A stretch of DNA of 64,000 nucleotides from Gammaproteobacteria bacterium (GCA_050298595.1 JBNKUM010000118.1:1-64000), one strand, 5' to 3'. Counted from the first letter of the stretch, positions 8,760-56,388 are shown. Notes: a model not told the origin generated them from the letters alone. Translations and numbers: made by a program.

Positions 8760-8760
8760 C

Positions 8761-26592: not shown

Positions 26593-29430
26593 CTAAGTTG
26601 AAAGCGCTTCGATCTCGCGGGAAACAGCAACTTCCGTCAGGGGTACCGGCTTGCTGATACCATAGCCCTGAATAAAATCAACCCCGATTTCAACGAGTTT
26701 TTTCAGTGTTTTTTCATTCTCGACAAATTCTGCCACAGTTTTCAGTTGCATGGCGTGGCCGATTTCGTTAATTGACCGCACAAAGGTACAGTCGAGGGGC
26801 TGATCGACAATATTGCGAACAAAACTGCCGTCTATTTTCAATATGTCGATAGGCATATTTTTTAAATAGTTAAAAGAAGACATGCCAACGCCAAAGTCGT
26901 CCAAGGCAAAGCTGCAACCTTTATCGCGCATCTCGGTTATAAAATCGATGGCCCGGTTCAGGTTAAGCACCGCCGCAGTTTCCGTGACTTCAAAGCAGAT
27001 TTGCTTATAGGGTACGCTGTAATACTCAAACCGGTCCAGCAGATACAACAGCATTTTGGTGTCACCCAGTGAATGACCGGATAAGTTGATGGAAAATCGG
27101 GTGTATTTGCGAATCTGTTCACATTGCTCCGTCAGCCAATGAAAAAAATGATTGACCACCCATTTGTCAATCTGGCCAATCAACCCATATCTTTCCGCCG
27201 CCTGCAAAAACATCCCGGGGGCAATCAACTCACCGCCCCGGGACTGCATGCGCAGTAAAATTTCATAGTAGCTATCGGAACTGGCCGCCCTCCCCTCAGT
27301 TGATCCCAGGGGACGGACTTCCTGGGCATAAAGTATGAATCGGTCCTGATCCAGCGCCGCGGCAATTTCTGTGGCCCAGTGCACCTCACCTTTGTATCGC
27401 GCCAGCCGCTGGTCCTCAGGTTGATAAATATGTACCCGATTGCGCCCTTCATATTTGGCGATATAACAGGCCGAATCCCCCAGATGCAGAGGGTTATCGG
27501 ACTCCGGCACCTGGTGCAGGTCGACCAGACCAATGGACGCTCCCACAGTGTATCCCTTGTCCTCCCACTGAAAACGATAATCCTGAATGCGCCGGCGGAT
27601 TTTTTCGGCGATCATATACGCCGGCCCCAACGGACAGTGCTTTAACAGCAAACCAAATTCATCACCACCCAGCCGACCCAGAATATCGTCGCCGCGAATT
27701 TGCAATTGCATTTGCTTGGCGAGTTGCTGCAAAAGCTGATCACCGGCGGTGTGACCGCAGAAATCATTGACTACTTTAAACCGATCCAGGTCGATATACA
27801 GCAACGCGTGTTCAGCGTGCTCCTTTCTTCCCGACTCCATCAGCGATTGTAAACGCCGTTCGAATTCCGCCCGGTTGAGCAGGTTGGTTAAAGAATCGTG
27901 AGCCGCCTGATAGAGCAGACGCTCGTTCATCGCCCGCTTGGCGGTGATGTCCCGAAACACCAGCACCGAGCCAAGACAGGCACCCTCGCGCTTCAACAGC
28001 GGTGTCGCCACCTTTTCGATATACAATTCTTCGCCGCGGCGGTTGGTGAGAATAAAATAGCTGGTTTCGCGTATGACTTTTAATTTATCCAGGCAGAGTT
28101 CAACGATATTTCTTTCAGGCCGGTTTCCCATTTCATCCCGGGTCTGAAAAACTTCAACCAGATTTCTACCTTTGCAGTCCCCCCGGTTCCAACCGGTAAT
28201 CCTCTCTCCCGCGGGGTTGATATACTCTATCCGCCCTTCACAGTCGGTGCTAATAACACCGTCGTGTATAGAAGACAGGGTAGTGGCGGCCCTGTCTCTC
28301 TGCAGTTGTAAGTCGGCGCGGGATTCGGCTAAAGCCGCCAGCATTGCATTAAAGGATTCCGCGAAATAGCCCAGTTCATCATCTCCATCGACACTGGCGC
28401 GCATTTCCAAGTCCCTTTTTTTGCGGATTGCATGCACATCTTCATTCAGCCGTGACAGGCGTTTCAACACCATATAGTCAAGGAATAACAATATCAGACC
28501 CGTGGATACCATTGCCAGAACCGCCAGCGCCACAACCAACGAATCGCTGGTATGCTCTGCCTGCTCCATAATTTCGCGCCCGGTGCCAAGACGCAGAATC
28601 TCTATCGGCTTCCTGTTTATATCGCGGATATAACTGTAGGACTCAATTCGTTCGCTATCGAGGGGCTGAATTACCGTTTTGCGCCCTTGTTTTAGTAATT
28701 CCAAAACAGTGCCGTCGAACCCGTGCCGTGCCGTGGCAGCCTGTCCGGACAATGGCAACACATCAAGTTCCAGCAGCAACTTTTCCGACAGCGTTGCCAA
28801 CGCAGTGGGTGTAAGCTTCCGGGCCATAATCAATGTGCCATTGACCGGACCTTCGCCGCTGCTGGTTAGTATCGGTTGCGACGAAAGCAGCCACGGCTCG
28901 CGCCCCACCTGCAGAAATCCGTTCACCCGCCCCGCCACCTCGGTTTGCAACAGTGTTTTGCGCCTGGCTGAAAAAGTACTCACTAACAAAGCGGGCAGAG
29001 GTGCCAGTTGCCCCTGCTCTTTATCCGCACCAGTGCCATAGACCAGTTCGCCAGCATTGTTATAGAAGGCGATAGCGTCGAGAGGAATATTGTGAAATAT
29101 ATCAAAGGTGATATTGGAATCGATATAAGACTGATGTTTTAGTCGCACAAAATCATGGGATTGATTCCACGCCGCCCAGTCTCTCACCAGCCCGCTGAGC
29201 GCGTCGATTTCCTGTTGCAGCGCATTGTGAGCCCGGGCCGTGTCTTTCTGTAAGGCTTTTTCCTCCAGCGCCAGATAGCCGTTTTGGATCCTGGACTCGA
29301 TGACCCAGTAAAGCCCCACAATCAATAACGCCTGGGAGACAGCCAGTAGCAGCAATACTTTGCGGCGCAGGCTATGCCCCTTGTCGATGGCATCTGACCG
29401 GGAAATAGCAATTTTAGTGGATTCAGCCAT
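26593..29430 (-). CDS. CHASE4-HAMP-PAS-GGDEF-EAL membrane c-di-GMP enzyme
   Basis: Two TM helices around DWAAW CHASE4; HAMP DELGYFAESFNAM; PAS; intact GGDEF; EILLR and DDFG. Confidence 0.93.
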   Translation of the reverse strand: MAESTKIAISRSDAIDKGHSLRRKVLLLLAVSQALLIVGLYWVIESRIQNGYLALEEKALQKDTARAHNALQQEIDALSGLVRDWAAWNQSHDFVRLKHQSYIDSNITFDIFHNIPLDAIAFYNNAGELVYGTGADKEQGQLAPLPALLVSTFSARRKTLLQTEVAGRVNGFLQVGREPWLLSSQPILTSSGEGPVNGTLIMARKLTPTALATLSEKLLLELDVLPLSGQAATARHGFDGTVLELLKQGRKTVIQPLDSERIESYSYIRDINRKPIEILRLGTGREIMEQAEHTSDSLVVALAVLAMVSTGLILLFLDYMVLKRLSRLNEDVHAIRKKRDLEMRASVDGDDELGYFAESFNAMLAALAESRADLQLQRDRAATTLSSIHDGVISTDCEGRIEYINPAGERITGWNRGDCKGRNLVEVFQTRDEMGNRPERNIVELCLDKLKVIRETSYFILTNRRGEELYIEKVATPLLKREGACLGSVLVFRDITAKRAMNERLLYQAAHDSLTNLLNRAEFERRLQSLMESGRKEHAEHALLYIDLDRFKVVNDFCGHTAGDQLLQQLAKQMQLQIRGDDILGRLGGDEFGLLLKHCPLGPAYMIAEKIRRRIQDYRFQWEDKGYTVGASIGLVDLHQVPESDNPLHLGDSACYIAKYEGRNRVHIYQPEDQRLARYKGEVHWATEIAAALDQDRFILYAQEVRPLGSTEGRAASSDSYYEILLRMQSRGGELIAPGMFLQAAERYGLIGQIDKWVVNHFFHWLTEQCEQIRKYTRFSINLSGHSLGDTKMLLYLLDRFEYYSVPYKQICFEVTETAAVLNLNRAIDFITEMRDKGCSFALDDFGVGMSSFNYLKNMPIDILKIDGSFVRNIVDQPLDCTFVRSINEIGHAMQLKTVAEFVENEKTLKKLVEIGVDFIQGYGISKPVPLTEVAVSREIEALST

Positions 29431-29488: not shown

Positions 29489-32400
29489 TCAGCCGAGTAA
29501 GCAACGATTACGGCCCTGATTTTTGGCCTCGTAAAGCTTTTCGTCGGCACGGGCAAAAACATTTTCGATGGTCTCTTCGCCGGAAAACACCGCCAGTCCC
29601 ACGGAAATGGTGACCTGCACAGGCTTATTCTTAAAGCGAAAAGGGGTGATGGCGATGGTTTCGCGAATTTTATCGAGGATTTGCAGAGAAACTTCCCCAT
29701 TGGTTTCCGGCAACAGCAGCACAAACTCCTCACCACCGTAACGGGCGATAAAGTCCACTTTGCGCAAGCGCCGAAAAATAGCACGGCTGAGCACGATGAG
29801 CACTCGATCACCGGCCTGGTGGCCATAACTGTCATTGATCTTTTTGAAAAAGTCGATATCGCAAATCGCCAGGGTTAGCGGGTGCCGGTAGCGCTTCCAG
29901 CGCTGGTATTCCATAAACACCCGCTCACTATAGGCTTGCCGGTTCGGCAATTGGGTCAACGGGTCCTGCAACGCCTTGCGTCTTTGCTTTTCTATATCGA
30001 TTTTGTGCTGTTGCGCCTGAGCCTCCATGCATTCAACTCGGCTGACCAAAGCCTGTAACTGTTGTTCCAGTGGCGCGTCAGTGGAATTTTGACTCAGTTG
30101 AAAACGCTCCAACGCGGTTTGAATGGAATCTATGTGCGTATTTACCTGGCTTTTCAGGCTTTCAATGTCTGTGGCAGTGGTGAGCGATGTCTGCAGTGTC
30201 TGCATCTGTCCGCCCAGACTGGCTTGAAGATTTTCCGTTGCCCGGCGCATATCCGCCTCGGCGTTTATAGTTCCCCCCAACCGCTGACAGACAGTTTCCA
30301 GTTCCGTGTTGACCGTGGCGAGATATTCTTCAAACTTACGGTCGGAGGTTAAATGGGCTTGTATAACCAGATCGCGAATATCCTCCAGCGCCGGTACCAG
30401 TTCATACCAATTGAGTCCCCGGCCAATCCGCTGCCTGGTATCGGTCGCTTTTTCTTCCACACAGGCGACCGGTTCGACATTCTCCAGCAATTCCATCAAT
30501 ACCTGGGTTACCTTAGCGGATATATTGGAAAAGGCCGGTTCTCCAGCTTCTTGAAAGTCGCATTGCGCTTCACCGTCGGTTTCACTCCCACAGATTGCTG
30601 GTTCTGGTTCTGGTTCTGGCTCTGGTTCAGTTTTAGTCTCAGTAACTTCACTATCTGCAGTAACTTTCTGGATGCTTTCCGGCTGACTATCTGGCTTTTT
30701 CTGCGTGCTTACTTTGACAGTGGCAGTGGCTTTATCTTCAGATTTTCGGCTGAGTAAGCGGATCAGACTTTTGCTTAAGTCAACAATAAAGTCACGCAGA
30801 GCAAACAGCATGGCAAGGACAAAAATCCACACAAAATTAAACGTGGCAGCAATATAGTCCAGCAAGCCTTTTTCAGCATCTTCATCGAGTTCACAGTCAA
30901 TTTCACCACCATCAAGCACTGGATCGTAGGGTAAATCGCCATATATAGTGGTCCCGCTAGCATCAATGGTTTTTTCTGCAAAAGCCTTACGTACACTTAT
31001 CGTGCCTAATGGAATAACCACCAGAGTCAATACCGTAGAAACCAGCACACCAAAAGCCAGGGATATCGCCATGCCTTTAAAAATAGGATCAAAAATAATG
31101 ACGCCAGATCCTCCGACCAGGGCTAACGCAGTAACGACTATGGGACGTGTTCTGGCTTTACAGGCACCTAATACCGAATCACAAACAGGCTTACCCGCTT
31201 CTATTTCATGCTTGGTAAAATCGACCAGTAAGATAGAGTTTCGTACGATAATACCGGCCAGAGCGATAAAGCCGATCATTGATGTAGCGGTAAATTCTGC
31301 ACCAAACAACCAGTGGCCGGGGATAATCCCAACCAGCGTTAAGGGTATAGGTGCCATAATGACCGCGGGCAGACTAAAATTGCCAAACTCCATCACCACC
31401 AGCATATAAATCAGAATAATCGCCGCACCAAAAGCCATACCCATGTCACGGAATGTTTCGTAGGTTACCGTCCATTCACCCGCCCATTCAAAACCAGAAA
31501 CCTGATCTGTATCTGGAGGGCCTGTCCAGGTACCTTTAAGTTCAACCCCATCTGGAGTGGTATAGTCTTCCAGTGAGTCTATAACATCAAACATGCCATA
31601 GATTGGCGCACCCAGTTTACCCTGAGTTTCACCAGTCACGAATTCGACAGGCCTCAAGTCTTTGTGATAGATCACCTGGTCCTGCACAGTTTGAGTGAAG
31701 TCACCAAGCTCACCCAATGGCACACTGCCACCAAATTGGCTCGAAACAGGCATCTCTTTGAGGCGAGCCAGGTCTGCTCGAACATCGAAAGGCACCTGAA
31801 TTACAATGAAGGTTGGCTCAAGTTTATAACCATCTTTGACATCACCTAACACGTATTCACCCAGCGACATCTGTAATGTTCGGTTGATGGTATCCACTGA
31901 GATTCCACGTCTTACCGCTTTTTCCGTATCCACTTCAAAGCGCCAGACTTTATAGGGCTCTGCAATCAAGGTATCAACATCGGTAATGTTTTCCGACGCA
32001 TTAAATCTCTTTTCCAGGTCATGCGCCACCTGTCGACGGATGTCTTCGTCAGGGCCATAAACCTCAGCAACTACCGATTGTAGAACGGGTGGACCTGGAG
32101 GCATTTCAACAACCTGAATCTTCACATTATCGTTATCACCAATCACCTCATGTAGACGAGCACGCACGTCTTCGGCTATTTCATGACTGCTACGATCACG
32201 GTGTTTCTTATCCAGTAACTGCACCTGAATATCAGCCTCCCAGGGCTGGGTTCTCAGATAATAGTGGCGCACCAATCCATTAAAATTGAAAGGCGACGAT
32301 GCCCCAACATAGGTCTGCAGTGCAGTAACTTCTTCGACAGTCAGGATTTTCTCGGCCAACTCATTCACCTGATTGGCGGTGAGAGGTAAAGCAGAACCTT

Positions 32401-34210
32401 CCTTCATATTAACCACAACATTGAATTCGGGCTTGTTATCCAGGGGCAACATCTTGACCGGTACAGCCTTGGTATAAAACATGGATGCACACAAAAAGAA
32501 TACGATAAACAGGCTGGCGAGGAAGATGCGTCCCTTAGTTTTGTTGGTAATTAAAGGAATGAGTATTTTACGAAACAGATTGCCCAGCAATTCATTCTGA
32601 GAATGTTCAGACTCTTCCATCTCCTTGAGCTTTTCCATTGATGGCTTAATACGCATGGCCAGCCAGGGGGTAAACATAAAGGCTGCAAATACTGAAAACA
32701 GCATAGCAAAAGAACCCAGTGATGGAATCGGTTCCATATAAGGCCCCATCATCCCACGCACAAACCCCATGGGTAATAACGCAGCGATTACGGTCAGTGT
32801 TGCCAGGATAGTCGGGTTACCCACCTCTCTCACCGCATCGATAGCAATATCAGTTTCGGTACTTTCAGCCATCAACCAGCGCCGGTAGATATTCTCTACT
32901 ACGACGATGGCATCATCCACCAGAATCCCTATAGAAAATATCAATGCAAACAGACTCACCCTGTCGATGGTATAACCCGTTATCAGCGCATAAAATACCG
33001 TCACCAGTATGACCACAGGAATGACGATCATAACAACCAGAGCTGGCTCCCAACGAAAGTTAAGCGCAGCCCAGATTAAAACCACCACTATGCCTGTTGC
33101 TATGAATAACTTAAGAATCAGGCCATTGACCTTTTGCTCTGCTGATTTACCATAGTTTCGGGTCACAGCCACATGAATATTGTCGGGAATGACATTCCCC
33201 TTCATGGCTTCCACCTTAGCCAGGATATCTTCAGCTACTTCAACGCCATTCGAGCCTTTCTTTTTTGCTATCGCAACAGTAACCGCCGAGGCAGCGTAGG
33301 CTGCTTCAGCATTCTCTTCAAGGTGCTGGGCTGAGGTGTAATAATTGACTATCGATTTTGCATCGGCAGGTGCCGCAGTCACTCGTGCAATATCACGCAC
33401 ATAAACTGGAGAGCCATCATTGATCGCAACCACCAGACTTTCAATATCACTGACAGTTTTAAGAAAAGCTCCGGAATAAACCTTTGCGCTTTTATCATTG
33501 GATTCAATGTCACCCAGGCCGATTTCACTATTCGCTGTACGAATGGTATTAGCAATTTGATCCAGTGAAATATCATAACCGGAGAGCCTTTCGGGTAATA
33601 TTTCAATCTTAAGCTCATCTGAGCGGCCACCCACAACAAAGCCCTGGGCGGCATTTTCAACCGTACTGATAGATTGTAGAACATCCAGAGCGACTAATCT
33701 AAGAATGGAATCATCGTGTTCATTCGACCATAGCGTAAGAGTCACAACAGGAACATCATCAACCCCCTTTGGCTTTACCAGAGGTTGATCAACACCGGGT
33801 GGTATCTTGTCCATATTGGAAGAGAGTTTGTCGTACACCTTGACCAGTGATTTCTCCAGATCCTCACCAACCTCAAACTGTACGGTGACCATGCCCTGGT
33901 CACGAGTCGCAGCTGAATACACATGATCGACACCAGAAATCTCATTCAGCATTCGCTCCAGTGGATCGGTCGCCAGCCTGGATACCTGTTGCGCGGAGGC
34001 ACCTTTATAGCTGATAAAGATATCCACCATGGGGACTGATATCTGAGGGTCCTCCTGACGTGGTGTTAAAAACACGCCAAGAACACCTAGCGCGAAGCAG
34101 GCAATAAGTAGCAACGGGGTAAGTGGAGAATGAATAAAGGCCTTAGCCAGGTTACCGGCAATACCCAACGATTTATTTTTATGGTTTTTTGTATTATTTT
34201 GCTGTGTCAT
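29489..34210 (-). CDS. AcrB/CzcA-superfamily RND permease fused in frame to a coiled-coil GGDEF diguanylate cyclase (fusion may be artefactual)
   Basis: RND motifs PRQEDPQI, GILVDDAIVVVENI, RNSILLVDF, RTRPI. After an (EP)5 linker comes DPLTQLPNR...RKVD..ARYGGEEF. Confidence 0.8.
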   Translation of the reverse strand: MTQQNNTKNHKNKSLGIAGNLAKAFIHSPLTPLLLIACFALGVLGVFLTPRQEDPQISVPMVDIFISYKGASAQQVSRLATDPLERMLNEISGVDHVYSAATRDQGMVTVQFEVGEDLEKSLVKVYDKLSSNMDKIPPGVDQPLVKPKGVDDVPVVTLTLWSNEHDDSILRLVALDVLQSISTVENAAQGFVVGGRSDELKIEILPERLSGYDISLDQIANTIRTANSEIGLGDIESNDKSAKVYSGAFLKTVSDIESLVVAINDGSPVYVRDIARVTAAPADAKSIVNYYTSAQHLEENAEAAYAASAVTVAIAKKKGSNGVEVAEDILAKVEAMKGNVIPDNIHVAVTRNYGKSAEQKVNGLILKLFIATGIVVVLIWAALNFRWEPALVVMIVIPVVILVTVFYALITGYTIDRVSLFALIFSIGILVDDAIVVVENIYRRWLMAESTETDIAIDAVREVGNPTILATLTVIAALLPMGFVRGMMGPYMEPIPSLGSFAMLFSVFAAFMFTPWLAMRIKPSMEKLKEMEESEHSQNELLGNLFRKILIPLITNKTKGRIFLASLFIVFFLCASMFYTKAVPVKMLPLDNKPEFNVVVNMKEGSALPLTANQVNELAEKILTVEEVTALQTYVGASSPFNFNGLVRHYYLRTQPWEADIQVQLLDKKHRDRSSHEIAEDVRARLHEVIGDNDNVKIQVVEMPPGPPVLQSVVAEVYGPDEDIRRQVAHDLEKRFNASENITDVDTLIAEPYKVWRFEVDTEKAVRRGISVDTINRTLQMSLGEYVLGDVKDGYKLEPTFIVIQVPFDVRADLARLKEMPVSSQFGGSVPLGELGDFTQTVQDQVIYHKDLRPVEFVTGETQGKLGAPIYGMFDVIDSLEDYTTPDGVELKGTWTGPPDTDQVSGFEWAGEWTVTYETFRDMGMAFGAAIILIYMLVVMEFGNFSLPAVIMAPIPLTLVGIIPGHWLFGAEFTATSMIGFIALAGIIVRNSILLVDFTKHEIEAGKPVCDSVLGACKARTRPIVVTALALVGGSGVIIFDPIFKGMAISLAFGVLVSTVLTLVVIPLGTISVRKAFAEKTIDASGTTIYGDLPYDPVLDGGEIDCELDEDAEKGLLDYIAATFNFVWIFVLAMLFALRDFIVDLSKSLIRLLSRKSEDKATATVKVSTQKKPDSQPESIQKVTADSEVTETKTEPEPEPEPEPAICGSETDGEAQCDFQEAGEPAFSNISAKVTQVLMELLENVEPVACVEEKATDTRQRIGRGLNWYELVPALEDIRDLVIQAHLTSDRKFEEYLATVNTELETVCQRLGGTINAEADMRRATENLQASLGGQMQTLQTSLTTATDIESLKSQVNTHIDSIQTALERFQLSQNSTDAPLEQQLQALVSRVECMEAQAQQHKIDIEKQRRKALQDPLTQLPNRQAYSERVFMEYQRWKRYRHPLTLAICDIDFFKKINDSYGHQAGDRVLIVLSRAIFRRLRKVDFIARYGGEEFVLLLPETNGEVSLQILDKIRETIAITPFRFKNKPVQVTISVGLAVFSGEETIENVFARADEKLYEAKNQGRNRCLLG
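30599..30628 (-). repeat. (GARCCA)5 hexamer repeat encoding EPEPEPEPEP
   Basis: TGGTTC TGGTTC TGGTTC TGGCTC TGGTTC on the + strand. Confidence 0.95.
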
Positions 34211-34265
34211 TGTCGGATATCAGGATTTTATACGTGAGTGAAATAGCCTCTTGTTGATAGAGAGG

Positions 34266-35444
34266 TTACTGACTGTCGCTATCGCTGTTACTTGTTTTGC
34301 TTTCTACATCCGGCTTCCACCCAGATTTGATCGTTTTTGGTGGCGCACTAATGATTTTATCTCCAGACTTGATGCCTGATAGCACGGTAACTCTAGTCGC
34401 ATCATAGTCAGAGCCCAGCCTTACAATCCTCATCTTCGCCTGGTTTTCTTCATCCAGGATATAAACACTGGGCAGGCTGCCACGATAGATCACTGCATCT
34501 TTAGGAATAACAGGAACAAGTCTTCTATCTGCAGTAGTATCATTAATCGTCACCTCAGCATACAACCCTGGTCCACCTGGTGTGCCCTCTGGCAGATCAA
34601 ACTTTACGGTTACGGTATGTTTTTGTTTATCAGCAACTGGATATATTTGAGCGACCTTGGCTTTGGTGAAACTATTGTTTATATCCAGTTTGACATCAAC
34701 CAGGCTTCCTTTAGTCAAACCAAAAATCAGTCTTGCGGGGACTTCGGCCTGAATTCTAAGGTATTGGGTGTGAGCAAATTTCAGCAAGGGTGTGCCTGGT
34801 TGAACCGTATCGCCCTCTTCAACCATCTTGCGTACCAGCTTCCCATCAAATGGCGCAATCGCTCGAGCATCACGTAATTTGGCATCCAGTTCTTCCAGTC
34901 CAGAACGCGCCTTCATGACCATAGACTCTGCATTTTGCACCTGCGCTCCAGATGAATATAAGTCTCCATAGCGTTCGATATCCGGGTTACCAACGCCCAT
35001 CATGTTACCCATATTTTTGGTAAACATATTGTCGAACAAAGTTGGCATACCAAGCCCCGGCATACCGCTCAGGCTTTCTGCACGGGGAGAAATTAATTCG
35101 CGAGAATATTGAACCCTGGCATTGCGTAAACCGGATTCCGCATTTGAAAGTTGGGCTAACGCAGCTCTGCGCTGGGCGACCAGATCATCATCATCAATCG
35201 AGAGTAGTAAATTATTTTTCTGGAAGAAGTCACCCTCTGATCCGGCAATATATTGAACCCGGCCAGGAACCTGAGCTGAAAGCGTCACCTCTTTATAGGG
35301 AATAACCGTTCCACCAATTTTTATTTTATTTCCGAATTCAGCAGACTCAACAGTCATCAACTGCCATGCATGAGTACTACTCGATAAAACAGTAAGTATT
35401 GTAGCTATTGCCAGAGATGATTTTTTGAGATGGTTTGATTTCAT
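34266..35444 (-). CDS. RND efflux periplasmic adaptor (membrane fusion protein)
   Basis: Lipoyl halves AQVPGRV..I.GSEGD and APFDG..V...VEEGDTVQPG; directly upstream of the RND permease. Confidence 0.92.
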   Translation of the reverse strand: MKSNHLKKSSLAIATILTVLSSSTHAWQLMTVESAEFGNKIKIGGTVIPYKEVTLSAQVPGRVQYIAGSEGDFFQKNNLLLSIDDDDLVAQRRAALAQLSNAESGLRNARVQYSRELISPRAESLSGMPGLGMPTLFDNMFTKNMGNMMGVGNPDIERYGDLYSSGAQVQNAESMVMKARSGLEELDAKLRDARAIAPFDGKLVRKMVEEGDTVQPGTPLLKFAHTQYLRIQAEVPARLIFGLTKGSLVDVKLDINNSFTKAKVAQIYPVADKQKHTVTVKFDLPEGTPGGPGLYAEVTINDTTADRRLVPVIPKDAVIYRGSLPSVYILDEENQAKMRIVRLGSDYDATRVTVLSGIKSGDKIISAPPKTIKSGWKPDVESKTSNSDSDSQ

Positions 35445-35871
35445 TTTTATATTACCAATATCGCTTGATCAGGCCGCTTTATTTATAGTTAAAGGCTGGA
35501 CCTGAAACTTAATCCAGATCTAAAACCTTCTTTATTTTTAGTAACTACATCTGCTAATCAATTTTGAATTTGATGGATTAAGCTACTTATTACCCAATGT
35601 ACTCTTTGAACCATGAGGTATAAAACCCGTGAAGTCTAGCAAGAATTCACTTATGGCGCATACATTAGACTTTTTGTTTTTCTTTTATCTCAAACTGGTG
35701 CCAACTTGATACGGGAGTATATTAGCAAGCATTAATATAGATATCAATGTAAGAATTATCTGCCTCTCCCAAAAAATCAAACAGTAATGATTTCTGACTC
35801 ATCCGAACTACACTGAACTATCGACTATATATCGTAGAGCATTTAAACCTGTTCACATTGATTAAATCTGA

Positions 35872-36582
35872 TTACCTGTTTAGTCCCATATCAAGGAAGA
35901 CCTGAGCTAATCGAAGGTCTTCAGGGTGAGTTATTTTTATATTTCTACCATCTCCCTGCACCAGTCGAGGATGATAGCCGCTCAACTCCATAGCAGAGGC
36001 ATCATCTGTAACTAATAAATTCTGGGTTAGAATCGACTCTAGCGCCGTATAGATTTTACTAAGATAGAATGCCTGTGGAGTCAACGCCCGCCACAGGTGT
36101 TCACGAGGCTGTGTACTCAACACAGTAAGATCAGTATTCGCCTTTTTTAATGTATCCGCCAATGGTGTTGCCAACAGTGCGCCATCTTCACATCCCCTGG
36201 CAACCTGTAATAAGAGGTCAAGATCCTGATGCAGGACAAATGGCCTTACTGCATCGTGGATCATCACTATACAGTCTGCAGTGAGTTGAGATTTCAATGA
36301 GCTGAGCCCATTGAAAACAGAGTGATGCCTCTGCGCACCACCGATACAGGTTAACAGTGGTTTATTGGAATGATATTTAAGTAGTGGCCAGTGATCATCG
36401 CTTTCACTCAATATCAACATAACGCCATCGATTGCGTGAAAACTAAACAGGTTATCTAGCGTATGCTCTAACACTGTTTTATCACCCAAAGACAGATATT
36501 GCTTAGGCCGGTCAGCACCTATGCGTGACCCTACACCCGTTGCAGGAATTACGGCCCAACATTGAGGATTAGTAGAAGACAT
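35872..36582 (-). CDS. ispD: 2-C-methyl-D-erythritol 4-phosphate cytidylyltransferase
   Basis: PATGVGSR..PKQY, HDAVRP, TDDASA, NIKITHPEDL. Confidence 0.96.
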   Translation of the reverse strand: MSSTNPQCWAVIPATGVGSRIGADRPKQYLSLGDKTVLEHTLDNLFSFHAIDGVMLILSESDDHWPLLKYHSNKPLLTCIGGAQRHHSVFNGLSSLKSQLTADCIVMIHDAVRPFVLHQDLDLLLQVARGCEDGALLATPLADTLKKANTDLTVLSTQPREHLWRALTPQAFYLSKIYTALESILTQNLLVTDDASAMELSGYHPRLVQGDGRNIKITHPEDLRLAQVFLDMGLNR

Positions 36583-36875
36583 CAGGGCTCACCTGCCGCC
36601 TGCTGCGGGTTGACTAATTGATAAAAGGTTTCGCCTTTTTTAATCATCCCCAGGTCATTACGTGCTTTTTCTTCGTAAGCATCAAATCCGTTTTGTAGAT
36701 CTAAAACCTGAGCTTCCAGTTTGCGATTGCGCTCTTCCAGTAGCTTCAGCTTCTGCTTTTGAATTTCCAGCTCTGCAGATAGTTGCACGACTTCTGACAG
36801 GCTTCCATCACCAAACCAGAGTCGATACTGTAATACCAGAAAAGCAACGATTAATGCTGCAATCAACAGGCGCAT
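36582..36875 (-). CDS. ftsB: Cell division protein FtsB
   Basis: LQYRLWFGDGS, EEKARNDLGMIK; eno-ftsB-ispD synteny. Confidence 0.96.
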   Translation of the reverse strand: MRLLIAALIVAFLVLQYRLWFGDGSLSEVVQLSAELEIQKQKLKLLEERNRKLEAQVLDLQNGFDAYEEKARNDLGMIKKGETFYQLVNPQQAAGEP

Positions 36876-36917
36876 CCCTTCACCTGTTCTATAATGTCAA
36901 AACATAAAAATCGCAAT

Positions 36918-38210
<1,293 letters not shown>

Positions 38211-38298
38211 TTAGATATTTGATTTACCTTTCAGCTTATCCGCTTCAGGTAACAGTTGTATAAACAGGATGCCTGAGAACCAGACTCTTCCCGTAATA

Positions 38299-40835
<2,537 letters not shown>

Positions 40836-40869
40836 TTAACTCAATCGATATAGCAGATAACTAAGCGCT

Positions 40870-41826
40870 CTATTTAGTAGCAAGAATAACCGCGCGCAAA
40901 GGGGCCGGATAACCCTCCACCGTTTTATTTCGGTCATGGGGATCCAGACACTCAGGCAGTGATTCAAAAGGCATCCACTCAGTACTTCTCTGCTCCTCAA
41001 TCGTAGTTTGATTAACATCTACAACCCTTATGTCGCTGAATCCACAGCGGCTAAGCCAGTGAGACAGTTCATCGGTAGTCGGTAAAAACCAGACATTATT
41101 CATACGCGCATATCGAGAACCCGGAACCAGAACCTGACCGCTACCACCTTCAATCACCAGCGTTTCCAGACAAAGCTCACCTCCAGGCTTGAGCAGTGAC
41201 TTTAATTGCAGTAAATGATCAATTGGCGACTTTCTGTGATACAAAACCCCCATTGAAAAAACCGTATCAAACCATTGCATGTTTACAGGCATATGCTGTA
41301 TGCCGACCGGCAGCATATGAATACGCCCATCCTGGATATAATGTTGTAACGCGCGAAACTGCAAATTGAACAGCAAGGAGGGGTCTATACCCAGTACCAG
41401 ATCGGGCTCATGAGCCAGCATACGCCAGCAGTGATAACCATTTCCACAACCCACATCCAGTATACGTCGCTGTTTGAGTGGAGACAGATGTCGATAAATT
41501 CGATCCCATTTAAAATCGCTATGCCATTCAGTATCTATATACACATCTGCCAGCTGGAACGGCCCCTTTCGCCAGGGCTTTAAGCCCTGCAAGGCCTGCA
41601 ATAGCAACTCACCCTGCTCACAGCCTCCACTAACCGTCACAGCTGAGCGATTTAACTGGATTTGAGCTTCATCAATGGGAGGAAGGGAATTTAAAGCCTG
41701 ATTCCAGCGTTCGAAATCTCCATGATGCGCGGCACTGAACCAGTGCGGATCCGAAGTTCGCAATGTTTCAACCCAGCCCTGAAAACCAGATTGCTCAAGT
41801 TGTTGATAGAGTACTTCACGAAACAT
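40870..41826 (-). CDS. cmoB: tRNA U34 carboxymethyltransferase
   Basis: PWRKGPF, IDTEWHSDFKW, LDVGCGNGYH, SMGVLYHR, TVEGYPAP. Confidence 0.95.
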   Translation of the reverse strand: MFREVLYQQLEQSGFQGWVETLRTSDPHWFSAAHHGDFERWNQALNSLPPIDEAQIQLNRSAVTVSGGCEQGELLLQALQGLKPWRKGPFQLADVYIDTEWHSDFKWDRIYRHLSPLKQRRILDVGCGNGYHCWRMLAHEPDLVLGIDPSLLFNLQFRALQHYIQDGRIHMLPVGIQHMPVNMQWFDTVFSMGVLYHRKSPIDHLLQLKSLLKPGGELCLETLVIEGGSGQVLVPGSRYARMNNVWFLPTTDELSHWLSRCGFSDIRVVDVNQTTIEEQRSTEWMPFESLPECLDPHDRNKTVEGYPAPLRAVILATK

Positions 41827-42551
41827 TATTTAATTGCCAGAAAAGAAACAAAATTAAAACAGTGAAAACTTTCAATCACTTCACTAAAGCCACATTCCTT
41901 AAGCCTTGTCAGGTGAAGTGATTTCTTATCCGGAATTAGCACTTTCTCCAGAGCTGTACGTTTCTGAGCGATTTCAAGATCGCTATAGCCCTGTAATTTT
42001 TTAAACGCCTGATACAGCTCTGTCATATTGACCTGAGTCTCAGCATCATCGTACTCAACCTTTTCACTCAGCACCAGCGCACCACCAGGACACATCCCTT
42101 GGTGGATTTTTGTTAATAGCGCTAAACGTTGTTCGGGGTTGATAAACTGCAAGGTCAGGTTCAACACAACCAGAGAAGCATTTTCAATAGCAAGCGATTC
42201 AAGATCATCACAAATCCAGTCAATGTCCTGGTCAGAATTTTTTTCTCGACATTTACTGATCATAGAGGGTGAGTTATCCACTGCTAAAATTGAACAGTTT
42301 CTTTCCTCAACCTGTTGGGCAATCACTCGAGACACAACACCTGTCGAACACCCCAGATCATAGACATTGCTATTTTCGGTAACAAAAATATCTGCATACA
42401 GAGCGATCAGACGCACCAGTAATTCATACCCTGGCACCGAACGACCAATCATGTCATCAAAAACCCTGGTCACCTGCTCATCAAACTCAAATGCCTTGAC
42501 TGAGGTTAGAGGCCTGGAAAAAACTTTGTCTTTTGCTGTGATATCGGTCAT
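41826..42551 (-). CDS. cmoA: Carboxy-SAM synthase
   Basis: FEFDEQV..VFDDMI.RSVPGY, DLGCSTG, YSDLEIAQKRTALE. Confidence 0.95.
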   Translation of the reverse strand: MTDITAKDKVFSRPLTSVKAFEFDEQVTRVFDDMIGRSVPGYELLVRLIALYADIFVTENSNVYDLGCSTGVVSRVIAQQVEERNCSILAVDNSPSMISKCREKNSDQDIDWICDDLESLAIENASLVVLNLTLQFINPEQRLALLTKIHQGMCPGGALVLSEKVEYDDAETQVNMTELYQAFKKLQGYSDLEIAQKRTALEKVLIPDKKSLHLTRLKECGFSEVIESFHCFNFVSFLAIK

Positions 42552-42607
42552 GTTTCGTGGGTGGCTAGATGCTACAATCAAATTTTTGCTAATTATCGCA
42601 CATCATT

Positions 42608-43438
42608 ATGTTAAAGAAATGTCTTTACCCAGTAGCCGGTTATGGAACCCGTTTTCTTCCCGCAACCAAATCCATGGCAAAGGAAATGTTGCCCATTGTC
42701 GATAAACCTCTGATTCAGTATGCCGTAGAAGAAGCCATGAGCGCTGGTCTTGTGCAACAGGCATTTGTCACCGGCCGAACCAAACGATCAATAGAGGATC
42801 ATTTCGATATCAGCTATGAACTGGAGAACGAAATAAGGGGCAGCGCTAAAGAAGATCAACTGAAAGAGATTAGAGATATACGTGACAATTGCGTATTTAC
42901 CTACACGCGCCAGAAAGCGATGAATGGATTAGGCAAGGCCATTCTGACTGGAGAACCGATGATAGGCGATGAAGCATTCGGCGTGATCCTGGCTGACGAC
43001 TTATGTATTACCGAAGGAGATTCGGTGATGCAACAGATGGCCGGCCTGTATAAACAATTTCGCTGTAGTATCGTAGCCATTGAAGAAGTCCCGGCAGAAG
43101 AAACCTATAAATATGGTGTGATTGCCGGCGAACAGTTTCAGGATAATATTTTCAAGGTCACCGACATGGTTGAAAAACCAGCCCCGGAAGATGCCCCTAG
43201 CAATATGGCAATCATTGGTCGCTATATACTCACTCCGGACATTTTTGATTATATCCGGGAAACCAAGCCGGGTTCGAATGGTGAGGTTCAAATCACTGAT
43301 GCATTGCTTGCGCAGGCTAAAAGCGGTTGTGTACTGGCGTATCGATTCAAGGGCAAGCGTTTTGATTGCGGCAGTCTACATGGATACGTTGAAGCCACCA
43401 ATTATTGCTACAACAAATTCCACGACCCTTCAGAGTAG
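42608..43438 (+). CDS. galU: UTP-glucose-1-phosphate uridylyltransferase
   Basis: PVAGYGTRFLPATK, KEMLPIVDKP, VEKP, QITDAL, RFDCGS. Confidence 0.96.
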   Translation: MLKKCLYPVAGYGTRFLPATKSMAKEMLPIVDKPLIQYAVEEAMSAGLVQQAFVTGRTKRSIEDHFDISYELENEIRGSAKEDQLKEIRDIRDNCVFTYTRQKAMNGLGKAILTGEPMIGDEAFGVILADDLCITEGDSVMQQMAGLYKQFRCSIVAIEEVPAEETYKYGVIAGEQFQDNIFKVTDMVEKPAPEDAPSNMAIIGRYILTPDIFDYIRETKPGSNGEVQITDALLAQAKSGCVLAYRFKGKRFDCGSLHGYVEATNYCYNKFHDPSE

Positions 43439-44668
43439 TAGCAGGTCAGTTAATTTACCGTCTACATATATTTGTGGCGTAGTAGTACGTAACCAGGGCG
43501 GGACACGATACTTTTGAAAAAGACGTTTCAGGCGATGACTGCTTGAAGCGTCCGTCGAAGCGTGCTCAGTTCGAAAATGCAAAGCCAGTGTCTGCCCCTC
43601 CTCGGTCATCTTGAGTTTAGCTAGCAGCTGCTGCCGACTGATTAAGATATTCAGCGCTTTAATCTCTAAAGATGTATCTTCTGGCACATCGTAAGCCGGC
43701 AATAAATCTGGCTCCAGATAATCATCCACCATAAACAGCAAACCATCATAACAGCGCAGACTATAACCCTGGGCCTTAATCAGCGGCATTGCATCTGAGG
43801 CTGCCGAAACCTGTTTAAGAACCTGTTGTAGCTTTTTGAATCCAGGTTGCTGTTGATGTCTGGTATTTATCCAGAAACGTATAAGGTTCTTCTGGCGTTC
43901 AGCGGAAAGACGGGTTAAGGCGAATATATCCAGACAGGGGGAGGTTGAAAATAAATGATCCCGTGTACAGGTCTGTAAATCAATCTGTGCCAAATCCTCT
44001 AGCAGTTGATGCTGTTCCCTTTGCCATTCGCTAACCCGGTGTAATAGTGGAATCACAGCAGGCCAGCGCTGTTTAATTCGCGGCAGAATCTGGTGGCGCA
44101 GATAATTCCGGTCATATTTAAATGAGTCGTTACTTGGATCTTCTACCCACTGCAAATTATGTTGAGCTGCATATTGTTCAATCGCTTCGCGCTGAAAATT
44201 GAGTAGCGGTCGAAACAGCCAGCCCTGCCCTAAACGGGTTAAATCAGCGATGGCTCTCAAACCCGCCGAGCCAGATCCACGCATCAGATTCAACATCAGC
44301 GTTTCCGCCTGATCATTCATATGATGAGCTGTTAGCAGTGCATCTTGCGCAGTTAGCGCCTGAGAGAATAAATCATAGCGAGCCTGACGGGCTACCGCTT
44401 CGAGATTAGCGCTATCAGGATTGAGATTCAGATGATCAACCCGAATCTCCAGATTGTATTTTTCTGCCAGATCATAGGCCATCTGCTGCATCTGTAGCGC
44501 ATTAGCTTGTAGACCGTGATTAATATGCCAAAGTACCAGCGAGTAACTATGCTGCTGCTGGAGCAGCCTGTGCAGCAACACACAGGAATCGATTCCTGCA
44601 CTGAAAGCCAAATACAGTCGATTTACGCTTTCAGGTAATTTTTCCAGCGAGAGATGCAGGGAAGACAT
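43430..44668 (-). CDS. tilS: tRNA(Ile)-lysidine synthase
   Basis: PP-loop FSAGIDS, HINHGL, TAHHMNDQAET, EDPSN, RNYLRH. Confidence 0.93.
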   Translation of the reverse strand: MSSLHLSLEKLPESVNRLYLAFSAGIDSCVLLHRLLQQQHSYSLVLWHINHGLQANALQMQQMAYDLAEKYNLEIRVDHLNLNPDSANLEAVARQARYDLFSQALTAQDALLTAHHMNDQAETLMLNLMRGSGSAGLRAIADLTRLGQGWLFRPLLNFQREAIEQYAAQHNLQWVEDPSNDSFKYDRNYLRHQILPRIKQRWPAVIPLLHRVSEWQREQHQLLEDLAQIDLQTCTRDHLFSTSPCLDIFALTRLSAERQKNLIRFWINTRHQQQPGFKKLQQVLKQVSAASDAMPLIKAQGYSLRCYDGLLFMVDDYLEPDLLPAYDVPEDTSLEIKALNILISRQQLLAKLKMTEEGQTLALHFRTEHASTDASSSHRLKRLFQKYRVPPWLRTTTPQIYVDGKLTDLLLL

Positions 44669-44672
44669 TGCA

Positions 44673-45632
44673 TCAAGTTTCTATAAAGGCACCAAATCCC
44701 ATTAATCGGTTATAGCGTTGATCCAGTAGCTTATCGATACCGATTGCATCCAGTATCTCAATATTTTCAGATAGATTTTCACGCAAGCTATGAGCCATCT
44801 GATCATAATCCCTGTGAGCTCCACCCAAAGGCTCTCCGATAACCTGATCGATGAGTTTGAGCTCCAGTAATCGATTTGCAGTAATGCCCATGGCATCTGC
44901 AGCCTGAGCGGCCTTATCTGAACTTTTCCATAGAATAGAGGCACAGCCTTCCGGTGAAATGACAGAATAGGTTGCATACTGAAGCATATTAACCCGGTCA
45001 CCCACGGCTATAGCCAGAGCACCGCCTGAACCTCCTTCTCCGATGACAGTACAGATAATAGGCGTTTTAAGATCAGCCATCACATATAGATTTCGTGCAA
45101 TCGCTTCACTCTGCCCACGCTCTTCTGCACCGATACCAGGATAGGCCCCCGGGGTGTCTACCAGTGTGATCAATGGCATTTTAAATTTCTCAGCCATCTT
45201 CATTAATCGCATAGCCTTTCTGTAACCTTCTGGTCGAGGCATACCAAAATTACGTTTTATTTTTTCTCGGGTATCACGACCTTTTTGCTGGCCTAATACC
45301 ATCACAGGCTTTCCATTCAAGCGTCCGATTCCGCCTACCATTGGGCTATCATCAGCATATACTCGATCTCCATGTAGATACTCAAAATCCACAAACATCC
45401 GCTCGATGTAATCTACCGCATAAGGACGATTCGGATGACGAGCAATTTGTGAAATCTGCCAGGAGCTTAATTTGGAAAAAATTGAGTTGGTCAGACTTTC
45501 TGCCTTTTTTTCCAGAGTGCCAATTTCTTCTGTGATATTGATATCAGAGTCATCGGTTACATAACGTAGTTCTTCGATCTTGGCCTGAAGTTCAGCAATT
45601 GGTTGTTCAAAGTCTAGAAAATTTGGATCCAT
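44673..45632 (-). CDS. accA: Acetyl-CoA carboxylase carboxyltransferase alpha subunit
   Basis: [30 protein letters not shown]. Confidence 0.98.
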
Positions 45633-45822
45633 AGCGCTATAAGCCTGCCTTTATATTCGGTGTATTTATAGAAAACATTATTGTGTTATTGTTTGCGCAT
45701 AATGAGTGATCACTGATCTTATACAAGGAATAAATTAAAATGATTCACTACGGGTTAGAAACAGGAATTGTATCGATTTAAGCTTAAACTGTCAGTAATA
45801 ACCGATAATTTAACGCCAACAA

Positions 45823-46527
45823 TTATTCACATAAAGACTGGTTGATACGTTCTAGCTGTGCCACCGGGTCGATATGTGCGGTAATGGGTCGACCAATCAC
45901 CAGATAGCTGGAACCTGCGGCAATGGCCTGCTGAGGTGTCATGATACGCTGCTGATCATTACTATCTGAGCCTTCAGGCCGAATACCTGGTGTCACCAGT
46001 AAAGGCTTAGTGCCAAATTGATTTCGAATAGCTTCAGACTCTAGTGCAGAACAGACCATACCATCCAGCCCACATTCCAGGCTTAAAGCGGTCAAATCCA
46101 TAACAGCCTGACCAGGTGTTTTTTGAATGCCTATTTGGTCCAGACCCTGCTGATCGGTACTGGTTAGAATAGAAACCGCAATCAAATACGGAGCCTGACC
46201 ATCAAAATCATCGACTGCCTGTTTGGCCGCCAACATCATATTTCGACCACCAAGCGCATGAACATTAACCATCCATATACCTAGTCTGGCTGCAGCAGTG
46301 ATCGCCTTATTAACCGTATTGGGAATATCATGAAATTTCAAATCAAGAAACACATCATAACCTCGAGAGACTATGGCTTTGACAAGCTCGGGCCCTGCAG
46401 CTGTAAAAAGTTCCTTTCCAATTTTAACCCTGCACAGGGATGGGGAGATTTGATCAATAAATTGTAGAGCATTTTTCGCATCGGCATAATCCAGCGCGAC
46501 AATAATCTTTGAATCTGTTTTTTGCAT
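45823..46527 (-). CDS. pyrF: Orotidine-5'-phosphate decarboxylase
   Basis: IVALD, FLDLKFHDIPNT, VTPGIRP, VIGRPI. Confidence 0.97.
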   Translation of the reverse strand: MQKTDSKIIVALDYADAKNALQFIDQISPSLCRVKIGKELFTAAGPELVKAIVSRGYDVFLDLKFHDIPNTVNKAITAAARLGIWMVNVHALGGRNMMLAAKQAVDDFDGQAPYLIAVSILTSTDQQGLDQIGIQKTPGQAVMDLTALSLECGLDGMVCSALESEAIRNQFGTKPLLVTPGIRPEGSDSNDQQRIMTPQQAIAAGSSYLVIGRPITAHIDPVAQLERINQSLCE

Positions 46528-46541
46528 ATAAGTACTCAGAA

Positions 46542-47699
46542 TTAGTGAACCGGCTTCAGGCTTGACCAGGATTTGCAGCTGGGACAATTCCAGAACATGC
46601 TTTGACTGCCATAGCCACAGATATTACAGGTGTATGCTACACGTTTATTTTTGATTTCCTTAAACTGACTAGTCAGATCGGGCCAGGTATCATCCAGATG
46701 TTGAGGGTAAGCCTTAAAATAGCGCATCGCAAATTCAAAAACGTCTAGTGCAGCTGACTGCTTGAGCGCCTGTTTGATAAATTCCAGCAACTGTTTGTGC
46801 TGATCTCCAGCCAGATAACTTTCAAGCAGTTCTACCGCCAGAGGGCTAACCGGCATTTTTTCATACTGCCTGTAAAGAAACTCCTGAAATCGCTGAGTAG
46901 AACCACGATTAAGTAATATTTCACGAGCAGCAGGAATCAATAGCTCGATCTGGTGAGAATTTGGTTCAAGTATCTGATCGAACAACCTGGTTGCTTTGCT
47001 TATCTCATTATTTTTCAAATGGACGTCGATCAATAACAGGGAGGCTCGCGTGCATTTACTATCGGTTTGCAGTGCCATATCAAGCTGCTCTCGTGCCTGT
47101 CTCAAATTACCTCTTGCCAGTGATTGCTGAGCCAGTTCGCAATAACAATGACTCAAAATCAGACGCGCATCGGGTTCATTCATATCAAGTAAGATTTTTG
47201 CTTCGTCTCTGGCTTCAAGCCATGACTTTTCCATACTATACAGTTGCAACAACTGGCGGTGAGCATGGGCATGTTGTGGATTTATTTGAACCAGTTCTTT
47301 ATACAGATTTTCTGCACGATCCAGCAGACCTGCTTTTTGATAATCCTCAGCCAGCTCAGACAATGCCATAACTCTTTGGCCCTGTTCAAGATTGGGTCTG
47401 GCTATCAGGTTTTGATGAATTTTAATGGCTCGATCTACTTCGCCTTTACTGCGGAAGAGATTACCTAAAGCGAGATGGGTTTCTATGGTGTCTTTATCAA
47501 CCTTGACCAGCTCTACAAATAACTCGATAGCTTTATCTGAGTTATTGGCCAACAGGTAATTCAAGCCCTGTATATAATATTCGGAACAGTTAGCAAAATC
47601 GCTCTGTGTTGATTTTGATGGCTTAGGCTTAGAAAAACGACCAACTAGCCATCCGCTAAATAAAGCCAGAAAAATAATGACTGGTAACCAGATATCCAT
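46542..47699 (-). CDS. lapB: LPS assembly protein B (TPR repeats plus rubredoxin-like domain)
   Basis: GLNYLL, ALGNLFRSKGEVDRAIKIHQNL, C-terminal CNICG...CPSC. Confidence 0.95.
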   Translation of the reverse strand: MDIWLPVIIFLALFSGWLVGRFSKPKPSKSTQSDFANCSEYYIQGLNYLLANNSDKAIELFVELVKVDKDTIETHLALGNLFRSKGEVDRAIKIHQNLIARPNLEQGQRVMALSELAEDYQKAGLLDRAENLYKELVQINPQHAHAHRQLLQLYSMEKSWLEARDEAKILLDMNEPDARLILSHCYCELAQQSLARGNLRQAREQLDMALQTDSKCTRASLLLIDVHLKNNEISKATRLFDQILEPNSHQIELLIPAAREILLNRGSTQRFQEFLYRQYEKMPVSPLAVELLESYLAGDQHKQLLEFIKQALKQSAALDVFEFAMRYFKAYPQHLDDTWPDLTSQFKEIKNKRVAYTCNICGYGSQSMFWNCPSCKSWSSLKPVH

Positions 47700-47759
47700 A
47701 CGAGGGATGGTAGTCTACCTGGATTAAAGCATCAATGATTTGAATCGGGAGTAAAGCTT

Positions 47760-48071
47760 TTACTTCTGATTATTTGCGCGATCACGCAACTCCTTACCCG
47801 GCTTGAAATGCGGTACATATTTACCCGGCAATTCAACCTTATCACCTGATTTTGGGTTCCGGCCCACACGAGGAGGACGAAAATGCAGGCTAAAGCTTCC
47901 AAAGCCACGTATCTCTATTCTTTCACCCATAGATAACGCGTTGCTCATCATCTCGATTAAGCTTTTCACTGCCAACTCGACATCTTTATACGCAAGATGA
48001 CTTTGACTACGAGAAAGGTTATCGATCAAATCAGATTTTGTTAATGAAGGTATATATTCTTGTTCTTTCAT
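47760..48071 (-). CDS. ihfB: Integration host factor beta subunit
   Basis: [34 protein letters not shown]. Confidence 0.97.
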
Positions 48072-48091
48072 AACAACGCCCCTTATTGAAT

Positions 48092-48118
48092 AAAAGGGCG
48101 GGTAATTAACCCGCCCTT
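48092..48118 (-). terminator. Intrinsic terminator hairpin after rpsA
   Basis: AAGGGCGGGT-loop-ACCCGCCCTT with a short U-tract on the minus strand. Confidence 0.7.
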
Positions 48119-48123
48119 CAATT

Positions 48124-49803: not shown

Positions 49804-49923
49804 GGAATTTCCTAAAGAATAAAATAAGTAATCAGGCTAAGGAGAGCCCAGATTACAGTCTAGTTAAACAACATGGTGGCAGAGTGCCTGACACCACACC
49901 TAAAATTACTGACGCATAAGTGA

Positions 49924-50610
49924 CTACACTTCAGTATTTGAATCGTTGATCGTTCGTATATGTTCCATCACCAGTTCAAATACCTGCTCCAGGTCCATCA
50001 TACTTGAATCAACAACTACTGCATCGGTAGCTGGAATCAACGGAGAAACAGGGCGATTCTGGTCGCGCTCGTCTCTGATTTCAATTTCTTTTTGCAGGTC
50101 GGCGATGTTAGCGGATAATCCCATATCAATCAACTGCTTATAACGCCTTTTTGCCCTTTGCTCGGCACTTGCGTGCAAATAAAGCTTAATTTTGGCATCT
50201 GGGAACACCACGGTACCCATATCACGACCATCAGCCACCAGCCCCGGAGGCTGAAAAAAATCTCGCTGTAACTGCAACAATTGTTCGCGAATGCTGGGAT
50301 ATGCAGCAATAACGGAGGCAGATGCGGCCGTTTTTTCTTCACGAATCTGGCTGGATACATCGACTCCATCCAGATAAGGGATAGTCAATTCGTCACCGGT
50401 TTTAAAACTGATCTGCATTGAGCTTATAGCGCCCAGTACTGCAGATTCATCTGTCAGATCGACGCCTTTTTTTAATGCCTGTAATGCCGCCAGACGATAA
50501 ATAGCCCCACTGTCCAGAATTTGAAACCCAAGTTCGCGTGCAACACGTAAAGCTAAACTCCCCTTACCTGAGCCACTGGGGCCATCGATTGTGATGACAT
50601 ATGCGGTCAT
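49924..50610 (-). CDS. cmk: Cytidylate kinase
   Basis: IDGPSGSGKG, LDSGAIYR, DGRDMGTVVFP. Confidence 0.97.
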   Translation of the reverse strand: MTAYVITIDGPSGSGKGSLALRVARELGFQILDSGAIYRLAALQALKKGVDLTDESAVLGAISSMQISFKTGDELTIPYLDGVDVSSQIREEKTAASASVIAAYPSIREQLLQLQRDFFQPPGLVADGRDMGTVVFPDAKIKLYLHASAEQRAKRRYKQLIDMGLSANIADLQKEIEIRDERDQNRPVSPLIPATDAVVVDSSMMDLEQVFELVMEHIRTINDSNTEV

Positions 50611-51917: not shown

Positions 51918-52019
51918 TACTTAAGTAAGTTAGGGTAAATTGAGAAAGCGAATTGTACCTTATGTTATAGAAGGAAATTACAAAAGGTTAATTAATAACT
52001 ATCAGAGCTGCCATACATA

Positions 52020-52880: not shown

Positions 52881-52924
52881 TGGTTTTACATTCCAAATAG
52901 CTTAAAGATTCCTTCGCCCGCATG

Positions 52925-55194: not shown

Positions 55195-55205
55195 TGGACT
55201 AATCC

Positions 55206-56288: not shown

Positions 56289-56388
56289 TCTCTTTTCCCA
56301 TTGAGTTAAAAAGTTTAAAGTTTCCCTCTGCTACCAGTTGAGTAAAAAATAAAACTCAGCGCTATTCGAAAAGGGTGTATTAGTGAAT

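Follow-up and report, generated by a model that had tools for sequence, protein, structure and literature searches.

An apparent fusion of an RND permease and a diguanylate cyclase in a metagenome-assembled genome is very probably an interspecies chimeric contig joined within a coding repeat

The closest described relatives of the gene discussed here belong to two families, the RND permeases of the AcrB/AcrD/AcrF type (PF00873), which go together with a HlyD-type adaptor, and the DGCcoil-GGDEF cyclases, for which 'PA5487-type' is presumably another name. Among the papers listed by one literature search on efflux and cyclic di-GMP (c-di-GMP), no title or abstract opening showed an RND-GGDEF fusion. 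The nearest case that we found is a link of efflux pumps (MdtB/C, AcrB/D-like and CusA) with c-di-GMP enzymes (BifA and RbdA) in Pseudomonas fluorescens, which, as outlined in its source (10.64898/2026.05.12.724550), concerns separate interacting proteins and no fusion. A different kind of precedent is given by chimeric MEGAHIT contigs in metagenome-assembled genomes (MAGs), described in outline in a preprint (10.64898/2026.10.15.759294), where foreign DNA occurs within one contig of a MAG of good marker quality and the genes of the foreign part disagree with the relatives of that MAG. We analysed a stretch of 64,000 nucleotides (the window; positions 1-64000 of contig C118 of the source assembly G000, which has 119 contigs and is 98.6% complete and 1.84% contaminated according to marker statistics). 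In it a single open reading frame (ORF) at 29489..34210, on the minus strand and of 1573 codons, appears to fuse an RND permease to a diguanylate cyclase. The contig is very probably an interspecies chimera made during metagenome assembly, and the fusion no gene of any cell. It is like the contigs of the preprint in the features just named and unlike them, as far as they are outlined there, in that the join lies inside two coding repeats, keeps the frame and mimics a new architecture.

The content of the frame is as a preliminary description, made from the DNA alone, had given it. An ACR_tran domain at residues 23-1068 (window 31007-34144; Pfam profile positions 3-1015 of 1021, E-value 8.9e-138) is a full-length match to PF00873, the profile of twelve-helix, two-loop permeases. 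It is followed by a thirteenth hydrophobic helix, YIAATFNFVWIFVLAMLFAL (residues 1119-1138, window 30797-30856), whose 20 residues have a mean Kyte-Doolittle hydropathy of 2.32, as high as in the other membrane helices of the pump. After a polar stretch comes the repeat EPEPEPEPEP, or (EP)5, at residues 1195-1204 (window 30599-30628), encoded by GAACCA GAGCCA GAACCA GAACCA GAACCA. The remainder is a cyclase, with a DGCcoil domain (PF20975) at residues 1226-1393, the motif LNWYELVP at residues 1266-1273 and a complete GGDEF domain (PF00990, profile positions 1-161 of 161) at residues 1413-1569. The motif GGEEF is at residues 1492-1496 and RKVD, five residues ahead of it (1483-1486), has the spacing of an RxxD I-site. 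With a complete domain, a GG(D/E)EF motif and a TIGR00254 score of 162.1 against a cut-off of 37.4, this part qualifies as a diguanylate cyclase. All of these features are on the minus strand. The cyclase resembles the DGCcoil-GGDEF family in its GGDEF domain, GGEEF motif, I-site and second coil half, and differs from it in that the DGCcoil match covers profile positions 188-357 of 359 only, positions 1-187 and with them the complete N-terminal coil being absent.

The DNA on the two sides of the repeat has two origins. From position 1, the end of the contig, to 30598, the window is about 98% identical to contigs of G041, the MAG of an Exilibacterium sp. (Cellvibrionaceae by NCBI taxonomy; its named record is L041). 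Window 91-20000 is found in G041 at 95-99% identity, mostly 98%, and window 23671-30625 aligns with L041 at 98.49% identity, colinear up to the end of the L041 contig. In the 13 genus mates of the source organism this left part has no close match, the best being 66-72% across a few hundred bases, and the cyclase half finds paralogues at 30-34% only, with a best value of 34%. On the right, in contrast, window 30603..64000 is DNA of the own genus, with 79-91% DNA identity to the relatives, while window 30629-50000 gives just four conserved pieces in G041, at 65-71%. The named relatives of the pump are unclassified Gammaproteobacteria MAGs, followed by ones labelled Thiotrichales and Chromatiales. 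The ORF is thereby divided into an RND permease of the own genus (residues 1-1194, 30629..34210, assigned by Pfam and by genus-mate identity) and the C-terminal 369 residues, with the stop, of an Exilibacterium-type DGCcoil-GGDEF cyclase which lacks its own N-terminal part of about 190 residues (29489..30598), both on the minus strand. The two halves thus differ in taxonomy, one being of the own genus and the other 98% identical to an Exilibacterium MAG, an outcome that the preliminary description had named as speaking against a real fusion.

The change of origin is also visible in the base composition, and the shift at the repeat that was first seen from hand counts stands. In 300-nt windows the guanine-plus-cytosine (GC) fraction is 0.50-0.54 at 29600-30500 vs 0.42-0.45 at 30650-31100, and at the 10-kb scale the left part of the window has 49.9-51.9% GC, compared with 45.0 +/- 2.6% for the bulk of G000 (474 windows). 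Four 10-kb windows that lie wholly in this left part or in a second foreign piece, on contig C48 (see below), have 49.9-54.4% GC and rank 1, 3, 5 and 11 of 480 as tetranucleotide outliers. An independent native Exilibacterium stretch has a discriminant score of 0.77, above the 99.5th percentile of the bulk (0.74); the discriminant was trained on the foreign segments themselves, so weight is given to this independent stretch only.

Both genes are known in uninterrupted form. The native cyclase at L041:5407-7110 (P0122) is complete, with 561 residues from its ATG and a DGCcoil match over profile positions 9-357 of 359, and set against this, the match in the window confirms the earlier view of the cyclase as the C-terminal half of a PA5487-type enzyme. 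The L041 protein reads ...NSAPGPNPDTAQEPEP-AICGSE..., and two further proteins of 567 residues belong to its 90% cluster. P0129, a 567-residue cyclase on a contig of 213,728 nt, reads ...NPDTAP-EPEPEPEPEP-AICGSE... and, starting with its first EP, agrees with the window ORF (residues 1195-1573) at 379/379 positions, which shows that the P0129-type cyclase allele has (EP)5 natively. P0122, P0128, P0129 and P0130 are all ordinary DGCcoil-GGDEF members of 561-567 residues. When residues 1-200 of P0122 were compared with G000 by tblastn, the N-terminal half of the cyclase had no match at E <= 1e-3.

For the pump, a near-full-length orthologue is present in 11 of the 13 genus mates, at 79-96% identity, where its open frames are 1169-1376 codons long; the remaining two contain pieces of the gene only. 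No cyclase is fused to the orthologue in any of the 13, and their matches to the window ORF all stop by query residue 1257. Typically the protein has about 1300 residues, with the thirteenth helix, an acidic EP tail, a Lys-rich stretch and the end RRGIRLKSDIDDE. This C-terminal extension of about 230-250 residues is conserved in P0002, P0003, P0004, P0007 and P0126, where LPYDP and an acidic patch precede the hydrophobic helix, and RDFxVDL, a variable acidic (EP/ET) stretch and a stretch rich in Lys and Ala lead to the invariant RRGIRLKSDIDDE. The window protein matches this pattern up to (EP)5 and diverges after it. The thirteenth helix is kept in these five proteins and in P0123. In one respect the preliminary description is to be corrected: the extra helix and the disordered tail, though correctly noticed, are conserved native features of the RND clade and not by-products of the join. 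We know of no described function for the extension. The part of it in the window covers 30629-31006 (pump residues 1069-1194), and its rest is at C48:107501-107800 of G000. Basic residues come after the thirteenth helix in the clade, and the Lys/Ala-rich stretch is histone-H1-like, with PF07382 in some members. Otherwise the permease is like AcrB/AcrD/AcrF in its full ACR_tran domain and in having an adaptor gene directly upstream (34266..35444, minus strand; Pfam HlyD_D23 and HlyD_3, a HlyD-type membrane-fusion partner). It is unlike textbook RND pumps in carrying the extension and in missing the NCBIfam cut-offs for named RND subfamilies (425.8 vs 1250).

The homology with the relatives breaks off sharply. 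Among four loci of relatives, DNA homology ends at 30598-30603 in two and at 30731-30734 in the other two, and below the break the DNA of these four loci aligns to nothing in the window. Their downstream DNA maps instead to C48:100538-107868 of G000 and then to C53, and in all three relatives with enough flank (L028, L029 and L030) this C48/C53 region, with no cyclase, succeeds the pump gene. A deletion fusing two neighbouring genes of one genome would produce an in-frame ORF and a cyclase devoid of its N-terminus, as are seen here. It would leave unexplained that pump-flanking DNA without a cyclase is found in three of three relatives and that nothing close to the cyclase side was found among the 13 genus mates, so that its probability is negligible, and it was rejected on the ground that the gene after the pump in the relatives is not a cyclase. 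An inversion or reciprocal exchange within one genome was likewise rejected, the partner segments being 98-99% identical to another MAG, with none close in the 13 genus mates.

The displaced end of the pump gene is found outside the window. The ORF at C48:107501-109414 (assigned by Pfam and homology) encodes a lipoprotein-type signal, three CHRD domains, a CxxCH motif, (EP)11 and an RND tail ending in HRRGIRLKSDIDDE, and is a second chimeric ORF. The adjoining C48:107869-127700 is again Exilibacterium-like, being found in G041 at 93-99% identity, mostly 98-99%. In G041 the native CHRD gene passes through (EP)13 (...SAS-(EP)13) into TATLSQ, after which the contig ends. The native pump end is in turn seen in L129, a 1702-nt contig from a named MAG record, which reads ...SEVTETKT-(EP)17-QVAPQSLVSE...KKVASK. 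Its (EP)17 opens with the same five units as the repeat of the window and contains nine perfect GAACCA units (54 nt), and its tail has 98.7% DNA identity to that in C48. G000 therefore holds two odd joins, both within EP repeats, one leading from the pump 5' part to the cyclase and the other from the CHRD gene to the pump tail. With sides that match different organisms, and with the RND end and tail (L129) and full cyclases (P0122 and P0129) known in native form, the earlier suggestion of two genes from two genomes, joined via a low-complexity repeat, is borne out.

A probable course of events can be outlined. Two co-occurring gammaproteobacteria each have genes with GAR-CCA (Glu-Pro) hexanucleotide repeats. 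In the own organism this is the RND permease, ...TETKT-(EP)n-QVAPQS...Lys-rich...RRGIRLKSDIDDE, and in the Exilibacterium-like organism the cyclase, ...NPDTAP-(EP)5-AICGSE, together with the secreted CHRD/haem-motif protein, ...SAS-(EP)13. In a de Bruijn graph of small k the EP repeats would collapse to shared nodes, from which the assembler could exit by a wrong edge, the pump 5' part then running into the cyclase 3' part (the window) and the CHRD gene into the pump 3' tail (C48). The nine GAACCA units are untraversable for small-k graphs, with the cyclase (EP)5 and the CHRD (EP)13 as alternative exits; the exact step in the assembly graph could have differed in detail. Only the length of the repeat unit, two codons, puts the join in frame, and since such a unit keeps the frame at any exit, selection need not be invoked for the open frame and is not indicated by it. 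The contig ends of G000 are of the MEGAHIT type, in that 36 contig-end pairs overlap by exactly 141 nt, which we take to be the default largest k of MEGAHIT. MEGAHIT begins at k = 21 and hands its contigs to the next k. At the protein level P0129 has (EP)5 and L129 has (EP)17; the L041 DNA shares few bases with the repeat of the pump.

Several points weigh against an origin in assembly. The repeat of 30 nt is far below k = 141, so the wrong path would have to stem from a small-k round (21 or 29); MEGAHIT does carry small-k paths forward to larger k. L041 has only GAGCCA GAGCCA ahead of the cyclase half, too little for a collision in the graph, and the shared DNA word would have to be that of the (EP)5 cyclase allele, which is known as a protein only (P0129). 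The C48 repeat is not a simple reciprocal product of the join in the window. The comparison with public runs described below covers four runs from two studies as contigs of k = 31, not raw reads of the source sample, and one contig in it that stops at the junction may do so at a branch which includes the form of the window. Finally, the orientation of the two junctions is that of a single insertion between direct EP repeats, and no foreign DNA was found elsewhere than at the ends of the split pump gene.

These last two points are what a real junction would give, in which a block of Exilibacterium DNA, 50 kb or more in length and delimited by the cyclase (EP)5 and the CHRD (EP)13, recombined into the (EP)17 of the pump. 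The pump would then be split, with a true RND-cyclase fusion at one end of the insert and a CHRD-tail fusion at the other. That both junctions lie in EP repeats and that both foreign pieces come from one type of donor also fits such an event, which we nevertheless regard as unlikely. Two other compositional outlier regions of G000, C56:20000-39900 and C40:10000-29900, are not Exilibacterium-like when compared with G041, one having a single match at 72% and the other none, so that foreign DNA was seen at the split pump gene only, as an insertion would have it. A chimera accounts for this placement just as well, since a contig is binned according to its larger part.

An insertion would, moreover, require the right order and orientation of the cyclase and CHRD genes in the donor. 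It would yield a pump that lacks its conserved tail and a cyclase that has lost half of its coil, and if the thirteenth helix spans the membrane, the cyclase of a real fusion would be expected outside the cytoplasm. It would also need to be extremely recent, given the 379/379 identity to the donor allele and the RND-side contigs of two public runs, X1 and X2, which are identical or nearly so to the window.

Part of the window is contained in eleven public runs, and at least half of the sampled words in four of them. Four runs (X1, X2, X5 and X6) were compared with the window, and among the 30 of their 88 contig pieces that were listed, no bridge across the junction was found. A 7430-nt contig of X2 and a 553-nt contig of X6 lead from the cyclase half into sequence unlike that of the window, which is found at L041:5951, just upstream of the native gene's cyclase half. 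On the pump side, a contig of X2 has 2 differences in 590 nt and then goes on into 17 further letters of repeat, not into the cyclase. The continuation of the RND sequence of X2 into the repeat, together with that of its sole cyclase contig into the cyclase's own N-terminus, argues against an insertion. In X1, the best-matching run, the pump-side contig has 0 differences in 1904 nt and ends exactly at 30599. Another X1 contig joins the cyclase flank, by way of the repeat, to 22 letters that are the same as C48:107861-107882, the end of the CHRD gene, as an excised circle of the insert would give; 22 letters are below the bridge threshold of 31, and we take this contig as a lead only. In X5 and X6 only the cyclase side is covered by contigs (for X5 six pieces, with 4 differences in about 2.5 kb), and the missing cover of the pump side was not counted as evidence. 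The same applies to the summed contig depths, which differ between the sides in X1 (about 20 vs 7-8) and less so in X2.

The join could also have been made in the tube, by template switching at an EP repeat during amplification of the library, and then have been followed by the assembler. The 54 nt of perfect GAACCA cannot be crossed by short-k graphs, so that a rare chimeric link could be their only unbranched exit, and judging from the alternative join in X1, such data contain more than one kind of EP-mediated join. We consider this quite improbable: chimeric molecules are rare and usually pruned by assemblers, and the shared (EP)5 word is already a simpler explanation in terms of the graph.

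Searches for the architecture outside G000 are in line with a chimera of the assembly. Among the best 120 of 437 matches to residues 1040-1573, 35 have ACR_tran and 85 have GGDEF, and none (0/120) has both. Together with the 13 genus mates, these matches thus provide no natural RND-GGDEF architecture in an independent genome. The exact 1573-residue protein is present on one contig only, that of the window, among about 15 billion proteins, and its five cluster mates have 1307-1328 residues. The novel fusion that the preliminary description had put forward as its other possibility is accordingly not upheld, and the single occurrence likewise disfavours an insertion. A pattern of the pump flank, a gap of 12-42 nt and the cyclase flank had 0 matches in metagenome_contigs and 0 in genome_contigs, which, taken at face value, also counts against an insertion; the cyclase flank alone had 0 matches in metagenome_contigs as well, and as the window's own record may be missing from both collections, these negatives show little.

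If the insertion were real after all, protein-coding low-complexity repeats would be landing sites for gene transfer between orders. The pump tail would have been replaced by a half-coil diguanylate cyclase, linking efflux directly to c-di-GMP signalling, and the insert could perhaps be excised again via its flanking repeats, with which the CHRD-cyclase contig of X1 would agree. If, as is far more probable, the contig is a chimera of the assembly, the finding is a warning rather than a discovery. At least two contigs of a well-scored MAG switch organism inside a coding repeat, and since the repeat unit is two codons long, each switch yields a clean open frame that resembles a new domain architecture. 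The 1573-residue frame is already in a public protein collection, where it would be picked up by anyone mining MAG proteomes for c-di-GMP or efflux architectures.

Directly downstream of the cyclase, on the Exilibacterium-like side, lies a CHASE4-PAS-GGDEF-EAL gene for a protein of 945 residues (26593..29430, minus strand; Pfam). It is colinear with L041:7169-10006, where it follows the cyclase in the same order. The foreign side further contains repeat elements of 150-190 nt, at window 10095-10284 and 25310-25462 and at C48:127690-127842 of G000. The first has more than 30 copies across the G041 contigs, at 77-94% identity; the second matches the final 153 nt of C48 at 95% identity and also has many copies in G041. 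Such short repeats probably explain the end points of both chimeric contigs.

Five EP repeats are present in G000. C15:39378-39515 and C47:3-254, which share 139 nt, break off within a long (GAGCCT/GAACCT)n EP repeat, and a single gene, with at least (EP)23, is divided between the two contigs. At C85:197127-197228, (EP)17 lies within a frame of 2039 codons which, by eye, resembles a multi-Hpt kinase of the ChpA/CheA type that has a receiver domain. C102:1-232 is 94% identical to the copy of the RND gene in another strain and 84% identical to that of the window, with the same 77 residues encoded, while the sequence past 232 nt is a paralogous RND gene, 47% identical overall; gene conversion or one more chimeric contig end may be the cause. 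In a genus mate, L030:9296-9642 is an element of about 350 nt that matches at least 14 sites on the G000 contigs, at 68-85% identity, and seems to represent a repeat family dispersed in the genus.

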